From Lachnospiraceae bacterium (GTDB taxonomy: Bacteria > Bacillota > Clostridia > Lachnospirales > Lachnospiraceae), in the NCBI GenBank assembly GCA_045546775.1, contig JAZQDM010000063.1:25864-89863 (forward strand): a stretch of DNA of 64,000 nt, written 5' to 3'. A model generated the notes under the pieces. That model was not told the DNA's origin, searched no databases, and saw nothing but the letters and a program-made list of their open reading frames with translations. The stretch's first letter is position 1; every line of letters begins with the position of its first letter. The position numbers and the translations under genes are program-made. Below, piece by piece: positions 36,922 to 43,384 of the stretch.

Positions 36922-38394
36922 ATGCTTTTTAATTCATATATTTTTATTTTCTTGTTTTTGCCGGCTGTACTGCTTGGCTGGTGGATGTTTAATAAGTTTG
37001 AAAAATTTAGGGCTGCGCAAGCATTTCTTGTGGGTATGTCGCTTGTGTTTTACGGATATGCCAATATAAAGTGCGTGCCGGTTCTTGTGGGAAGTTGTTT
37101 GGTAAATTATGTGCTGAGCTACGTACTTTCAAAGATGAGACAACAGTCTGCAAAGAAAGCGGTGCTTGTTGCCGGCTGTGTGTTGAACATTGGTGCACTG
37201 GGGTATTTTAAATATTGCAATTTCTTTTTGGACACATTAAATACGGTGTTCCGAACAGATTTTATGATGCAACATATATGGTTGCCCCTTGGCATCAGTT
37301 TCTTTACGTTTAAGCAGTTGTCCTTTTTGGTGGACCGTTACAAAGAGAAAGCACCACATTACAGCGTGCTTGATTATGCGGCGTATGTGACCTTTTTCCC
37401 ACAGTTGATTTCCGGGCCGATTGGACTGCATGATGAGTTGATTCCGCAGTTTCAGGACAAAGGCAGACGGAAGTTTGCTACGGACAGCTTTGCGCAGGGA
37501 ATCGTATATTTTGTCATCGGTATCAGTAAAAAAGTGCTTCTTGCGGACACCCTTGCAAAGGCAGTCAATTACGGTTTTTCCAATATTGCAACGCTGGATA
37601 GTGTGGCGGCTTTTGTGGTGGCCCTGGCGTATACGTTTGAACTGTATTTTGATTTCAGCGGCTATAGTGACATGGCTGTCGGTATTGGAAAGATGCTTCG
37701 CATCGAAATACCGGACAACTTTAACGCGCCTTACAAGTCTGCGTCGGTCAAAGAATTTTGGCGTCGCTGGCACATAACGCTTGGACGGTTTTTCACTACA
37801 TACGTGTACATTCCGCTTGGCGGAAGCCGCAAAGGAAAGGTGCGTACCGTGGTTAACACGATGGTAGTCTTTTTGCTCAGCGGACTTTGGCACGGGGCAA
37901 ACTGGACGTTTGTATTCTGGGGCTTTTTGCATGGAATCGGTGTGTCGTTTTCGACTTTGTTTGGCAAAAAAAATGAGCCCAAAACGGGCAAAAAACGGGT
38001 GGCGCAGCTTATCACATTTTTGTATGTGTGCTTTGCTTTTGTATTTTTCAGAAGCGATTCCATGGCGGACGGACTGTTGTTCTTTCAGAGAATGTTTTCG
38101 TTTGAATATAACGGCTCACTGTTTGCGGTAGCGGAGGCAATGAGCGTTTCGGAAATTTATATTGTGACAAAAGTGCTTTCCATGAAGGCGCCGCAGTTGC
38201 TCGGTATCGTGAATGTAGCGATGCTTTTGTTTGTGAATGCAGTTGCAATATTTGCGCTGACAAGAAAGCGGACAAGGGACATCGTGGAAAACTGCAAGTG
38301 GAGCGGTAAATTTACGTATACCATGTCGGTGCTTTTTGTGTGGGCAGTGCTTTCGCTGTCCGGCGTCAGTACGTTTTTGTATTTCAGTTTTTAA
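36922..38394 (+). CDS. MBOAT-family membrane O-acyltransferase, copy 2
   Basis: MLFNSYIFIFLFLPAV N-terminus, FWRRWHITLGRFFTTYVYIPLGGSR block. Paralog of 19741..21180. Confidence 0.85.
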   Translation: MLFNSYIFIFLFLPAVLLGWWMFNKFEKFRAAQAFLVGMSLVFYGYANIKCVPVLVGSCLVNYVLSYVLSKMRQQSAKKAVLVAGCVLNIGALGYFKYCNFFLDTLNTVFRTDFMMQHIWLPLGISFFTFKQLSFLVDRYKEKAPHYSVLDYAAYVTFFPQLISGPIGLHDELIPQFQDKGRRKFATDSFAQGIVYFVIGISKKVLLADTLAKAVNYGFSNIATLDSVAAFVVALAYTFELYFDFSGYSDMAVGIGKMLRIEIPDNFNAPYKSASVKEFWRRWHITLGRFFTTYVYIPLGGSRKGKVRTVVNTMVVFLLSGLWHGANWTFVFWGFLHGIGVSFSTLFGKKNEPKTGKKRVAQLITFLYVCFAFVFFRSDSMADGLLFFQRMFSFEYNGSLFAVAEAMSVSEIYIVTKVLSMKAPQLLGIVNVAMLLFVNAVAIFALTRKRTRDIVENCKWSGKFTYTMSVLFVWAVLSLSGVSTFLYFSF

Positions 38395-38409: not shown

Positions 38410-39462
38410 ATGGAACAGAAAAAATTTATTAAAAATTTCATCATACAGTCGGCGGTATTTCTTGCCCTTGTGGCGGCAGTTGTCATTGTAGTTGACCCGT
38501 TTTTTCATTATCACGAGCCGGTAGGAAGTTTAAAGGCGGTTGTGACAAAAGCGGAGTACCAGTGCATCGGTACGGTGCACAATTTTGACTATGACGCCAT
38601 CGTGCTTGGCTCGTCGGTTGCGGAAAATTACAACAACCGCTGGTTTGACGAGGCGTTTGGCGGCACAACAATAAAAGGCATCAAAAGTTCCGCGGCAACC
38701 GTGGATTTGGTCTATTATTTGGAGGAGGCACTTGCTTCCACCGACTTAAAAAATGTGTATTACAGCATGGATTTGTTTGCCCTTACGGCAGATGCGGACA
38801 AGGTATTTCCGGACGATTCCCTGCCGCTGTATTTGTACAACGACAATCCCTTTGACGATGTGCAATACATTTGGAACAAGGATGTGGTGTTTGAACACAT
38901 TCCGTACATGTTTGCCATGACGTATTTGGACGATTATGACGAGGGAACGTCTTACAACTGGGCGCAGTACAAGACATTTTCCGAGGAAGATACGTTGCGT
39001 CATTATACCCGCCCGGAAGAAGTAAAAGAGATGCTGCCGGAAGCGGATTACAAAGAAAATATTGATGCAAATATTGCGCTGATTGAAGCGGTGGTGGCTG
39101 AAAATCCGGACACCATGTTTCGCTTTATTTATCCGCCTTACTCCATGCTTTGGTGGGACAATGCGTACCGCAACGGCGAGACGGAGCGAAATCTCTATGC
39201 AGCAACGGCGGCAGCGGAGCGGTTGCTTGCCTACGACAACGTAGAAATTTATTATTTTCAAAATAGGGAAGAGCTCATTACTGATTTGGATAATTACATG
39301 GACACCGTGCATTTTTCGGATGCCATCAATTATGCCATTGTGGATTGGATGAGCCGTGGCGAATACAAGCTTACGCCGGATAATTACGAGGCGGAGATTG
39401 CAAAAATGCGTGCCCTTTCAGATAAGATTCAGGAAGAGTATGTGGGATTGTATTTTGAGTAA
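38410..39462 (+). CDS. Membrane-anchored DltD/SGNH-like partner of MBOAT copy 2
   Basis: N-terminal TM. Candidate nucleophile motif VLGSSVAENY and C-terminal DTVH (DxxH). 15 nt after the MBOAT gene. Confidence 0.5.
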   Translation: MEQKKFIKNFIIQSAVFLALVAAVVIVVDPFFHYHEPVGSLKAVVTKAEYQCIGTVHNFDYDAIVLGSSVAENYNNRWFDEAFGGTTIKGIKSSAATVDLVYYLEEALASTDLKNVYYSMDLFALTADADKVFPDDSLPLYLYNDNPFDDVQYIWNKDVVFEHIPYMFAMTYLDDYDEGTSYNWAQYKTFSEEDTLRHYTRPEEVKEMLPEADYKENIDANIALIEAVVAENPDTMFRFIYPPYSMLWWDNAYRNGETERNLYAATAAAERLLAYDNVEIYYFQNREELITDLDNYMDTVHFSDAINYAIVDWMSRGEYKLTPDNYEAEIAKMRALSDKIQEEYVGLYFE

Positions 39463-39547
39463 AGAGTGGGAAAGGTTTGGGAATTAAAGTATAGTGCCCT
39501 GTTTTGCGCAATATAATTACACTACTGCGTTGTTTGTGAAAATATTG

Positions 39548-39576
39548 TTGCATTTTACAGAATATCGCGATAAAAT
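39548..39576 (+). promoter_or_regulatory. Sigma-A promoter of the riboswitch transcript
   Basis: TTGCAT (39548-39553), 17 nt, TAAAAT (39571-39576). Confidence 0.5.
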
Positions 39577-39589
39577 AAACTTGTGTGTA

Positions 39590-39686
39590 AGAGAGATGGC
39601 AAACTTATGGAAACGTAAGGACGCAAAGCAGGAAGTCTAAGTAATGGGGAATGTGTGGGACTCTATTATATTGATGGTTCGGTTGC
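39590..39686 (+). promoter_or_regulatory. c-di-GMP class I (GEMM-I) riboswitch aptamer
   Basis: GGCAAA (39598-39603). Stem CUUAUG/CGUAAG capped by a GAAA tetraloop (39604-39619). GACGCAAAGC (39620-39629). UCUAAG receptor-like element (39636-39641). Same layout as the Vc2 core GGCAAA-CCAUUC-GAAA-GAGUGG-GACGCAAAGC. Confidence 0.8.
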
Positions 39687-39712
39687 AGTGAGACTCATTG
39701 CAGCCTTTTTTT
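39681..39712 (+). terminator. Riboswitch expression-platform terminator
   Basis: GGTTGCAGTGA-gac-TCATTGCAGCC followed by T7. Confidence 0.75.
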
Positions 39713-39731
39713 GTGCAAAAAGGTGGTTGGT

Positions 39732-39866
39732 ATGAAAGAAACTGGTGTGAACAAAATTATTTGGGCTATTTGGGTAAAGATAGAGAGTGGGCTATGGACG
39801 ATGATTTCTTTTTATATAAAACTCCGGACAGCCAAAAGAAAGCAGAGGATAATGTCAATCAGTTAG
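39732..39866 (+). CDS. Possible 44-aa leader/small protein (not in ORF track)
   Basis: AAAGGTGG RBS 6 nt before ATG. MKETGVNKIIWAIWVKIESGLWTMISFYIKLRTAKRKQRIMSIS. Its stop overlaps the RBS of the next gene. Competes with a 63-aa ORF in another frame. Confidence 0.25.
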   Translation: MKETGVNKIIWAIWVKIESGLWTMISFYIKLRTAKRKQRIMSIS

Positions 39867-39875
39867 GAGTATTAT

Positions 39876-40427
39876 ATGGAACATACTAAAAAGGAAGTAA
39901 AATACAAGACGAAAAGGGAAGAGGAGATATATTTAAAAACACTTTTGTTTTTAGGTGTAAGTCTTGGAGGGATTGTTATTTTATTAGACTTGTATTGTGT
40001 GATATTTAAGGGGGAAAATGTTAGTGAAGACTTTTTTTCCAAATGTTGTCTGTTTTTTGCAATGACCATAGGGCTTTTATACTATTTCATACCAAAATAC
40101 AAGCGAAAAATATATGCCCAAAAGGGAGAGCTATTTGCAGGAAATGTTATTGGTGCCGATTGTATGATTCAAGGAAGGGGTGAGCATGCCTACTACCTCA
40201 TCATCGCATTTTACGAGAATGGCGAGAGAAAATTGCGCTATTCCGAGCCTTATGCGGGGAGCCCCAGATGCAAGTTGCGGGATACAAGCTGCGAGGTGTA
40301 CAAGTGGAAAGGAAAGTACATAGAAGGCGGATTACATGGCTTGTACAAAGGGGAGGAGTCGAAGAATCTGCCGATTCCAATATCAGAGTATCATAGTCGC
40401 GATAGGAAAAAATACGACTATGTGTAA
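39876..40427 (+). CDS. Uncharacterised two-TM membrane protein with about 100-aa C-terminal soluble domain
   Basis: TAGGAG RBS. Helices LLFLGVSLGGIVILLDLYCVIF and CCLFFAMTIGLLYYFI. AT-rich. Confidence 0.6.
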   Translation: MEHTKKEVKYKTKREEEIYLKTLLFLGVSLGGIVILLDLYCVIFKGENVSEDFFSKCCLFFAMTIGLLYYFIPKYKRKIYAQKGELFAGNVIGADCMIQGRGEHAYYLIIAFYENGERKLRYSEPYAGSPRCKLRDTSCEVYKWKGKYIEGGLHGLYKGEESKNLPIPISEYHSRDRKKYDYV

Positions 40428-40577
40428 ACGTTTAAAACAGTAATAGAAGCAGTATATGGAAAAGATTTGCACTAAGTTGTAAAATGTAGTTCATTTAAGG
40501 AGGCTGTCGTAGAAAAGGGCAGTCTCCCTAAAAACCGCATACTACAATGCATAACACAATTATGAGAGTACATAGAA

Positions 40578-41231
40578 ATGAAAAAGAAAATAACAATTGC
40601 AGTAGCAACTATTGTTTTTCTGATTGCTGGTATTTTTGTTGCAATTATGGGACTTGGCATAGGAAAAGCAAGAAGACAAGGAATGAATATTGTATATGAT
40701 AATCAAGTATATGTGGAAGCCGATAGTCCATACCAATACATAAAAGATGAAATGATTGCGATAACCTCGGAAGGCATTCGCTTATATAGTGTAAAAGGCG
40801 ACAAGGCATGTAACTATTTAATAGATTCACATTCAGGCTGTCTATACATAAAAGAGGGATATGAACCACCGAAAACAGAAGTGACAGGAATCATTGTATA
40901 TGATGGTGTCTTAAAGGCTGATAATGATGAACAATTATTAGAATTGGTAAGCGAGTTAAGCAATATGCAACAAGAACCGGATACAATAAGTCGGGAGAGT
41001 TATTTTTATACGACGGACAGAGCCGGTACCGGAGGAATGGATATTAATATTTGTTATGATAATTGTTGGGTTTCCTTTGATTATTTTGGCGAGATTGTGA
41101 AAGGCAAAAATGGTTATCTGTTTATTGCTTCGGAGCAGTTAATAAATAATAATTATGAACTTGTGGAATATATGGGAATCAGGATTGATAGTAAATATGA
41201 TGCTTTGTTAGATACGTATCGTACGAAATAA
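40578..41231 (+). CDS. Uncharacterised N-terminally anchored extracytoplasmic protein
   Basis: MKKKITIAVATIVFLIAGIFVAIMGLGIG anchor. I recognise no motif in the remaining 185 aa. Confidence 0.6.
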   Translation: MKKKITIAVATIVFLIAGIFVAIMGLGIGKARRQGMNIVYDNQVYVEADSPYQYIKDEMIAITSEGIRLYSVKGDKACNYLIDSHSGCLYIKEGYEPPKTEVTGIIVYDGVLKADNDEQLLELVSELSNMQQEPDTISRESYFYTTDRAGTGGMDINICYDNCWVSFDYFGEIVKGKNGYLFIASEQLINNNYELVEYMGIRIDSKYDALLDTYRTK

Positions 41232-41360
41232 TTGTGGTATGTAACACAGTTGACATGAGTGTTTTCGCGTAGCAGACAAGCAGTAACAGCAAAAACAGGT
41301 AGCGCGGAACAGGGAGATGAAGTTGCAAGTAGTGTTGCGGAAACGTAGAGGGACAATCGA

Positions 41361-41879
41361 ATGAAAAGAAAAAGCAAAAAAGTAATTATTATAATCCTAT
41401 TTTTGATTGCAGTAATCACGATAGCATTTCTAATTTATATAAATCGGCCTTTGCCGGCTCCGGAAAGAATAGTGACACTTTTTGAAACATACGAAGAGGA
41501 TTATACAAAAATCGCTCAAATATATTACAACGATTATTTGACACGAGAAGAAGACAAAGTTGCTTATTCGACAGCAGAAAGTGGAGAAATTACTTGTCGT
41601 TTGCAAGATACGGATTTGAAAAAAATTGCTCTGACAGAGGACGAAACCGCAAGTGCAAGGCGGATAGACGACACTTTTTCTTTGGATGGATATTATTGGG
41701 ACAGAGTATATGTATATGAGGGATTTGTCTCTTTTTCAACTGTGACAGGGCACGTATCACTAGTTTATTCTGTAGATGGTTCAAAGCCGACGAGGATTAA
41801 TTTCCCGGATGATGGTTTTGAGTACATCGTGTCAGATGCAAAAATCACAGAGCACTGGTATTACATGTCCGGACAATAA
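41361..41879 (+). CDS. Uncharacterised N-terminally anchored extracytoplasmic protein
   Basis: MKRKSKKVIIIILFLIAVITIAFLIYI anchor. No recognisable motif. Confidence 0.6.
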   Translation: MKRKSKKVIIIILFLIAVITIAFLIYINRPLPAPERIVTLFETYEEDYTKIAQIYYNDYLTREEDKVAYSTAESGEITCRLQDTDLKKIALTEDETASARRIDDTFSLDGYYWDRVYVYEGFVSFSTVTGHVSLVYSVDGSKPTRINFPDDGFEYIVSDAKITEHWYYMSGQ

Positions 41880-41917
41880 TCTGATATGCAAATGAAGATG
41901 CGACTTAGTTAGTAGAA

Positions 41918-41951
41918 GGGACGATATGTTTCGTGTGACGCATATCGTCCC
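41918..41951 (+). terminator. Hairpin ending the AT-rich block (weak T-tract)
   Basis: GGGACGATATG-loop-CATATCGTCCC, followed by TTAAATT. Confidence 0.4.
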
Positions 41952-42109
41952 TTAAATTATGATGCAAAATTAGGGACGGTGACAACAAATTTTATGATTC
42001 CACTGCCACAAAGGAAGGATAGATGTTATAATAAAAACACATCTGCCAAACACTATATTTTAAAAGCATGTATCTTTCAGGCAGATAGGCACAATTTCAG
42101 GAGGCAAAT

Positions 42110-43384
42110 ATGTTACTCATAAAAAACGGATATGTCATTGACCCGAAAAGCAAAACAGAAGGGAAAAAAGATATACGAATCGAGGATGGAAAGATTGCAA
42201 AAATCGCAGACACCATTCCGGTAGAAGGAGCCCCGCAAATTCTCGACGCTGCAGGCTTGATCGTTGCACCGGGACTGGTGGACGTGCATGTGCATTTCAG
42301 AGACCCGGGATTTACCTACAAAGAAGACATCGAAACCGGTGCGAAGGCGGCGGCAAAGGGCGGTTTTACAACGGTGGTGCTCATGGCCAATACGAAGCCG
42401 GCAGTGGACAGTGTGGACACGTTACAATACATTTTGGAAAAAGGCAAAACAACCGGCATTCATGTGGAAACTTGCGCCACAGTGACGGAAGGGATGCAGG
42501 GCAAAAAACTGACAGATATGTCAAAATTGTATGCAAAAGGAGCAGTAGGCTTTACGGATGACGGGGTACCGATTTTGGACGAAGCACTTGTACGCGAAGC
42601 AATGCTTAAAGTGAAAGAGACCAATACGCCAATCAGCTTCCACGAGGAAGACCCGGCATTCATCGAAAACAACGGTGTGAACTGCGGTAAGGCATCTGAC
42701 CATTTTGGTATCGGCGGTTCCAAGAGACAGGCAGAAATCAGCCTCGTGCAGAGAGATTTGGAGCTGGCATTGGAGACCGGGGCAGAAATTAACGTACAGC
42801 ACATCAGCTCCAAGGAAGCGGTAGAGCTTGTGCGTCAGGCAAAAAAACGCGGCAACAACATTCATGCGGAAGCAACACCGCATCATTTTACGCTGACAGA
42901 AGAAGCCGTGATAGAGCATGGCACGATGGCAAAAATGAACCCGCCGCTTCGCGAGGAGGAAGACCGTCTTGCGGTTATTGCAGGCTTGCAGGATGGCACC
43001 ATTGATTTGATTGCAACCGACCATGCGCCCCACAGTGTAGAAGAAAAAGCAAAACCGATTACCGAGGCACCCAGTGGCATTATCGGTTTGGAGACGGCGC
43101 TCAGCTTAGGCATCGAACAACTGGTGGACAAAGGCTACCTCTCCATGATGGAATTATTGGAAAAAATGACATGCAATCCGGCAGACCTTTATCATTTGCC
43201 GTGCGGCAGCATCAAGGAAGGTGCACCGGCAGATTTGGTGTTGTTTGACAAAGATAAAACGTGGGTGGCAGACACCTTTTTATCAAAATCTGCAAACACA
43301 CCGTTTAAAGGTAAGACAATGAAGGGCAAAGTATGTTATACTATCTGTGACGGAAACATCGTATATCAGGATGAAAATAAATAA
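42110..43384 (+). CDS. pyrC: Dihydroorotase
   Basis: PGLVDVHVHFRDPG metal-binding motif, TDHAPH block. Confidence 0.93.
   Translation: MLLIKNGYVIDPKSKTEGKKDIRIEDGKIAKIADTIPVEGAPQILDAAGLIVAPGLVDVHVHFRDPGFTYKEDIETGAKAAAKGGFTTVVLMANTKPAVDSVDTLQYILEKGKTTGIHVETCATVTEGMQGKKLTDMSKLYAKGAVGFTDDGVPILDEALVREAMLKVKETNTPISFHEEDPAFIENNGVNCGKASDHFGIGGSKRQAEISLVQRDLELALETGAEINVQHISSKEAVELVRQAKKRGNNIHAEATPHHFTLTEEAVIEHGTMAKMNPPLREEEDRLAVIAGLQDGTIDLIATDHAPHSVEEKAKPITEAPSGIIGLETALSLGIEQLVDKGYLSMMELLEKMTCNPADLYHLPCGSIKEGAPADLVLFDKDKTWVADTFLSKSANTPFKGKTMKGKVCYTICDGNIVYQDENK

Follow-up and report, generated by a model that had tools for sequence, protein, structure and literature searches.

The locus described here was best read as one class I c-di-GMP riboswitch that acts as an ON switch at the level of transcription, and we gave this reading a probability of roughly three in four. 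It lay in a 64-kb stretch of DNA from a Lachnospiraceae bacterium, the whole of which is called the window below. Conceptually this copy adds nothing, since the class of riboswitch, the ligand and an ON design built on a terminator are all established already. The points that were mildly new concerned the sequence behind the switch, namely a corrected small open reading frame (ORF) that abuts the terminator and a tie between c-di-GMP and an orphan gene cassette. The coordinates of the features are collected in Table 1.

Table 1. Features of the riboswitch locus and its neighbourhood (positions in the window)
Feature	Position	Strand	Basis
MBOAT acyltransferase gene	36922-38394	+	family match
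350-aa gene, no family assignment	38410-39462	+	ORF list
Putative sigma-70-type promoter, TTGCAT-17-TAAAAT	39548-39576	+	consensus match
c-di-GMP-I (GEMM-I) aptamer	39588-39690	+	RF01051 match
Intrinsic terminator/expression platform	39681-39712	+	independent terminator scan
Conserved small ORF, ~60 aa	39698 or 39713 to 39889	+	homology to relatives' ORFs
First sizeable regulated gene (candidate), 183 aa	39876-40427	+	ORF list
217-aa gene, N-terminal membrane anchor	40578-41231	+	ORF list
172-aa gene, N-terminal membrane anchor	41361-41879	+	ORF list

An earlier note on this DNA had proposed a GEMM-I riboswitch and had named a match to RF01051 above the gathering cutoff as the way to check it. 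Such a match was obtained when the whole window was compared with 4227 Rfam families by cmsearch. The aptamer segment scored 54.1 bits against RF01051 (c-di-GMP-I/GEMM-I; E 8.7e-8), the gathering score of this family being 35, and it covered model positions 1-87 of 87, so that the match was not truncated. It was the sole Rfam match at gathering thresholds in the 64-kb window, and RF01051 was the top-scoring family among three overlapping matches from clan CL00126 at the same place. No tandem or second aptamer was detected in a local Rfam scan at permissive E-values. The composite core pattern GGCAAA-N6-GAAA-N6-GACGCAAAGC was found once in the 64 kb with up to two mismatches allowed, and 100 dinucleotide-preserving shuffles yielded no match to it. 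On all the sequence-level criteria that could be tested, the segment was a member of RF01051.

The individual elements that had been read from the letters alone were all in place. These were GGCAAA at 39598-39603, the stem CUUAUG/CGUAAG (39604-09/39614-19, with U-G as one of its six pairs) capped by a GAAA loop, GACGCAAAGC at 39620-39629 and the UCUAAG receptor-like element at 39636-41. GGCAAA-stem-GAAA-stem-GACGCAAAGC, which the earlier note had named as the signature core of GEMM-I aptamers, occurred exactly over 39598-39629. According to the RF01051 alignment, a clamp of the pairs G39599-C39624 and C39600-G39623 encloses the GAAA hairpin (39604-39619, loop 39610-13). The receptor helix, P3, spans 39627-39684, and within it UCUAAG faces UAUUGA (39669-74). 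In this class a GNRA loop on one hairpin docks into a receptor of the other helix, and the GAAA loop together with UCUAAG, the 5' half of a putative receptor, would be the candidates for it here. The distal part of P3 contains 19 nt beyond the model, which form a 9-bp extension (39641-49/39661-69).

The structural reference for RF01051 is Vc2 from Vibrio cholerae. In this riboswitch the ligand contacts are G20, A47 and C92, and C44-G83 (Vc2 numbering) is a universally conserved interhelical pair (PMC6140456; PMC4744006). We mapped these positions by the Vc2 spacings, in which A47 follows G20 by 27 nt and C92 follows G83 by 9 nt. By alignment and spacing, rather than by structure, the contact equivalents were all present (G39598 for G20, A39625 for A47 and C39686 for C92), and so was the equivalent of the interhelical pair (C39622-G39677). 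Variants of the GEMM-Ib type that sense cGAMP carry A at position 20 (PMC6140456). Since G39598 occupied this position, c-di-GMP would be expected as the ligand rather than cGAMP, and cGAMP specificity was rejected.

The window copy deviated from the family model at the base of P3 by an A/G mismatch (39630/39681), within the 3' half of the receptor by an extra U (UAuUGA), where the posterior probability was lower, and behind the helix by an A in place of the second conserved C. In Vc2 the three-way junction has a closing helix, P1, that lies outside the Rfam model. No closing P1 helix was present in any predicted fold of the leader of the window copy. The 5' flank (39588-39597) was purine-rich, and in the minimum free energy (MFE) fold its partner was the U tract alone. 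Specifically, in this MFE fold, computed for the full leader, UAAGAGAG (39588-39595) paired with the terminator tail CUUUUUUU (39705-39712), enclosing both the aptamer and the terminator. This pairing was probably an artefact of A/G-U composition, and in read-through transcripts the same predicted pairing could serve as a substitute for the missing P1.

The second part of the riboswitch was the expression platform. A hairpin GGTTGCAGTGA/TCATTGCAGCC (39681-39705) followed by T7 up to 39712 had been noticed earlier, and an independent terminator scan agreed with it. Its stem consisted of 11 bp (39681-91/39695-705), among them five G-C and two G-U pairs, with a loop of 3 nt (GAC) and a U7 tract at 39706-12, and in isolation the hairpin was worth -14.6 kcal/mol. 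The overlap between the 3' strand of the aptamer and the left arm of the terminator (39681-39691), also proposed earlier, turned out to be exact: 39681-39684, the outermost 3' nucleotides of P3, pair in that helix, and C39686 is the equivalent of C92. Nucleotides 39681-39686 were thus common to the aptamer (the 3' strand of P3 together with the C92 equivalent) and to the basal four to six pairs of the terminator. Because these nucleotides are shared, the folded aptamer and the full-length terminator hairpin exclude each other.

Folding of growing transcripts showed where the two structures compete. In a transcript ending at 39702, the MFE fold comprised the whole aptamer, paired in the Rfam register, and an upper hairpin of 7 bp; in one ending at 39705, the four basal terminator pairs had displaced the base of P3. 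The competition was confined to the basal pairs, and when 39681-39686 were held by the aptamer the leftover hairpin was worth -0.2 kcal/mol. It follows from this overlap that the ligand would have to defend only the 4-6 pairs, of the 11 in the terminator stem, that bring the hairpin against the U tract. Intrinsic termination depends on just such pairs. When the full leader was folded, the MFE structure comprised the entire terminator and the GAAA hairpin, but only the inner portion of the receptor helix. By nearest-neighbour energies the terminator ensemble was favoured over the strict aptamer state by about 10.5 kcal/mol. In an equilibrium two-state estimate with ligand, in a model that omits tertiary contacts, the terminator always won thermodynamically. 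With the terminator favoured to this extent, the switch must be kinetic and rely on ligand and tertiary energy outside the model; we infer such kinetic control from the calculated energies, and do not read them as an argument against function. Taken together, the constrained folding, which the earlier note had suggested as a check, and the length-stepped folding fitted the ON logic and offered no alternative antiterminator for an OFF switch.

The mechanism that we propose would run as follows. Transcription would begin a few tens of bases before the aptamer, perhaps from the TAAAAT -10 element, or would arrive from the MBOAT operon upstream, and the aptamer would fold first. Without c-di-GMP, the weak base of P3 (A-U, G-U and C-G, then the A/G mismatch) would be displaced by the emerging right arm of the terminator. 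The 11-bp hairpin would then close onto the U7 tract, and RNA polymerase would stop near 39709-39712. Once bound between G39598, A39625 and C39686, c-di-GMP would lock the junction together with the base of P3. In this ligand-bound state the upper hairpin would reach 5-7 bp at most and end 4-6 nt short of the U tract. The polymerase would then read through into the ~60-aa ORF and the overlapping 183-aa gene, and possibly into two further genes for membrane-anchored proteins. Family membership, the terminator and its overlap with the aptamer were shown directly, whereas c-di-GMP binding, the ON direction, kinetic control, the promoter and the reach of the operon are predictions. Accepting them, the first ORF pair downstream of the terminator would probably be switched on by c-di-GMP.

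The promoter was the one weak element. The riboswitch had been described as having its own promoter, and the hexamers were present (TTGCAT at 39548-53 and TAAAAT at 39571-76, with a 17-nt spacer), as a plausible match to the consensus that statistics did not support. The putative -35 element agreed with TTGACA at three of six positions, with only TTG shared. A promoter scan listed the overlapping TTTACA-16-TAAACT (39554-81) and left TTGCAT-17-TAAAAT unlisted, and promoter-like sites in the region occurred at the chance level (8 observed, 6.8 expected). If used, TTGCAT-17-TAAAAT would start transcription at roughly 39583-39585, some 13 nt ahead of G39598. The terminator scan found no terminator-like site in 39463-39587, that is, between the stop codon of the upstream gene at 39462 and the aptamer, and read-through from the upstream operon of the MBOAT and 350-aa genes was therefore possible. 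The riboswitch terminator may thus double as the end of this operon, with upstream transcription feeding the switch. A crude motif search of the window revealed no GGDEF-type gene.

Behind the terminator, the frame that was conserved in relatives was a small, hydrophilic ORF with a W-x-E-x-x-Y motif. It would encode 63 aa when started from a TTG at 39698, in the right arm of the terminator, or 58 aa from a GTG at 39713, which abuts the U7 tract. The closest counterpart was a 68-aa ORF that lies directly before the homologous gene at a related metagenomic locus, L008 (50% identity over 52 aa, E 5e-13). Weaker matches were found at L007, to a 59-aa ORF, and at L003 and L006, where the C-termini of longer ORFs upstream were matched. 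The W, E, Y and D residues were invariant in the alignment of these sequences. The frame was closed upstream by a TGA at 39689, and this stop codon together with the conserved motif means that the start must be either the TTG or the GTG. A clear Shine-Dalgarno sequence was absent before both codons. A protein of 63 aa identical to the product of this frame, P0072, is recorded for the same NCBI contig of 192,865 nt. The small ORF had no tblastn matches in phages. We also considered a 44-aa ORF with an ATG at 39732 as the first regulated gene and rejected it, the homology to relatives being in the other frame, over 39698-39889. Similarly, AAAGGTGG before 39732 was rejected as a ribosome-binding site, since it corresponds to the codons for K-G-G-W.

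The 183-aa gene overlapped the small ORF by 14 nt and had an AGGAG ribosome-binding site 6 nt before its ATG. In its product, a basic N-terminus was followed by two transmembrane helices and, at the C-terminal end, by an OB-like beta-barrel. No family of Pfam, NCBIfam, PHROG or PADLOC matched this protein. In the AlphaFold2 model (pLDDT 87.5), helices at residues 18-45 and 51-83 were followed by a five-stranded barrel. A comparison of this model with the PDB gave no match at E<=0.001, and the best of the weak matches were OB folds. From the distribution of basic residues, we infer that the protein would have both termini inside (N-in/C-in) and a cytoplasmic barrel. An exhaustive HMMER search gave 61 representatives of the family at 50% clustering, nearly all of them 105-205 aa long. 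Their conserved C-terminal domain contained the invariant residues F112, Y126, P130, L134, C139 and Y142. The relatives (P0002-P0070) were uncharacterised proteins of ~170 aa with an MKYKTxRE N-terminus; among them, P0002 was a homologue with 65% identity. No tblastn matches to the 183-aa protein were found in plasmids, and with the negative phage search for the small ORF this led us to reject an origin from phages or plasmids. The small ORF and the 183-aa protein both belong to small uncharacterised families of Clostridia.

The proteins encoded by the next two genes, of 217 and 172 aa, likewise had no family matches (Pfam, NCBIfam, PHROG, PADLOC). No terminator-like site was present on the plus strand in 40427-42200, and none separated the 183-aa gene, these two genes and pyrC (40427-42110). 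The two genes may be co-transcribed with the 183-aa gene. Farther downstream, pyrC was identified as a dihydroorotase gene by Pfam, and the pyrK- and pyrD-like genes were named from sequence alone. The Rfam PyrR element was not found upstream of these genes at the gathering threshold.

We found no known link of the downstream genes to c-di-GMP biology. Moreover, RF01051 had no match at any of the 11 loci (L001-L011) that code for relatives of the 183-aa protein, so the pairing of riboswitch and gene was specific to the lineage of the window. At two of these loci, L003 (3180-7991; a Lachnospiraceae metagenome-assembled genome, MAG) and L006 (1-2977), the cassette followed giant proteins in which CBM_2 and TSP3 domains were recognised, with VWA also present in L006. 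There, the small-ORF domain matched the C-terminus of a longer ORF upstream, one of 301 aa in L003 and a protein of at least 1296 aa in L006, which lay beside CBM_2 domains or carried them itself. The arrangement at L003 and L006 suggests a functional tie of the cassette to large carbohydrate-binding or adhesin-like proteins. On three other metagenomic contigs, an S10-Clostridia ribosomal protein leader (RF03136, 66.6 bits) was located just 3' of the homologous gene (L009 3616-3690, L010 1474-1548 and L011 1150-1224). We took these leaders as a taxonomic hint only, namely that the family lives in Clostridia.

The same aptamer might instead work with OFF logic, where the ligand stabilises the aptamer and thereby lets the terminator form. 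A review describes all the characterised class I riboswitches that Clostridioides difficile possesses as switching transcription OFF (PMC11477304), and the thermodynamic dominance of the terminator would also suit such a design. However, OFF control would require an antiterminator, one that could capture an arm of the terminator as long as the aptamer is not folded. With the right arm kept single-stranded, no such competing element was found, only a diffuse fold of -19.8 kcal/mol. The OFF design therefore had no structural basis here. In addition, the left arm of the terminator itself consists of aptamer nucleotides (39681-39686), so that the two folds exclude each other, and we regarded OFF control as distinctly improbable. 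An even slighter chance was given to a decayed, non-functional aptamer whose hairpin would simply terminate the upstream MBOAT/350-aa operon constitutively. Several observations would agree with decay: the lack of a terminator between the upstream stop and the riboswitch, the promoter without statistical support, the mismatch in P3 and the insertion in the receptor, and the absence of the riboswitch from the loci of the downstream gene's relatives. On the other hand, the aptamer scored 19 bits above the curated threshold, and the invariant core and the contact nucleotides, which decay would be expected to hit first, were all intact. Furthermore, the register in which the aptamer overlaps the terminator was typical of a working expression platform.

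One more possibility would be an addition to the transcriptional ON switch and does not exclude it. In transcripts that have been read through, the hairpin might form again and hide the initiation region of the small ORF, so that c-di-GMP would gate translation too. This idea is suggested by the position of the only two starts, 39698 and 39713, that leave the invariant W-x-E-x-x-Y motif inside the conserved frame, by the public gene call (P0072) being the 63-aa form, and by the pairing of the TTG (39698-39700) with 39686-39688 in the terminator hairpin. Against it, neither putative start is preceded by a recognisable Shine-Dalgarno sequence, and an internal ATG at 39794, after a purine-rich stretch, offers an alternative start. 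The 183-aa gene, moreover, has its own strong AGGAG site. We therefore considered this second layer of control unlikely.

For annotation, the modest value of this riboswitch was that the frame 3' of the terminator could be corrected from the 44-aa ATG ORF to the conserved small ORF. It was also suggested that in the organism of the window an orphan pair, a small ORF and a membrane-protein gene, responds to c-di-GMP, and this link would be a cheap entry point for studying the 183-aa protein family. The cassette consisted of a hydrophilic ~60-aa W-x-E-x-x-Y protein followed by a protein with two transmembrane helices and the OB-like barrel, and the small part was stand-alone in some relatives. 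A broader view, in which the riboswitch is the first functional handle on an uncharacterised two-gene cassette of Clostridia that in this genome would be turned on at high c-di-GMP, with one hairpin gating both transcription and translation, was tentative and on balance doubtful.

Among the closest known systems, Vc2 resembled the aptamer of the window in its anatomy. The two shared the GGCAAA...GACGCAAAGC core, the GAAA tetraloop and the 5' half of the receptor, as well as the mapped contact nucleotides and the interhelical pair, all at the same spacings. The window copy differed from Vc2 in its longer distal P3, the insertion in the 3' half of the receptor, the A/G mismatch at the base of P3 and the lack of a predicted P1. 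Its expression platform was a transcription terminator, unlike that of Vc2. The cGAMP riboswitches of the GEMM-Ib type (Geobacter Gs1761 and relatives) had the same fold and belonged to the same Rfam family, and they carry an A at the equivalent of G20 (PMC6140456), where the window has G39598.

Within Clostridia, class I riboswitches Cdi1_6 and Cdi1_8 to Cdi1_11 of C. difficile are found upstream of genes for small proteins of 58 aa (bioRxiv 10.64898/2026.06.10.731418; PMC11477304). The parallel is loose. In both cases a class I aptamer with control by premature termination, predicted in the window, lies immediately 5' of a gene of ~58 aa, but the C. difficile riboswitches are OFF switches, whereas the design proposed for the window is ON. 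The C. difficile proteins are hydrophobic and membrane-associated and were reported to have no homologues outside this species (bioRxiv 10.64898/2026.06.10.731418). In contrast, the small ORF of the window was hydrophilic, belonged to another family and was overlapped by the 183-aa gene. Since the C. difficile proteins are hydrophobic and no outside homologues of them were reported, it was unlikely that the small ORF is homologous to them.

A functional parallel was Bc2, a class I riboswitch upstream of the cap gene in Bacillus thuringiensis BMB171, for which it has been demonstrated that c-di-GMP binding leads to read-through (PMC4933901). Bc2 was verified both in vitro and in vivo, whereas the window copy was predicted, and the hosts differ, a Bacillus in one case and a member of the Lachnospiraceae (Clostridia) in the other. 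Their targets also differ: Bc2 controls a surface adhesin (collagen adhesion protein), and the window copy lies before a small ORF and a protein with two transmembrane helices and an OB-like barrel. In both cases a class I aptamer is located directly before an intrinsic terminator, and termination as the default, with the ligand turning expression on, is established for Bc2 (PMC4933901) and predicted for the window copy. Bc2 has been described by a model of repression and de-repression (PMC4933901), and by analogy the riboswitch of the window would fit the same way of working.
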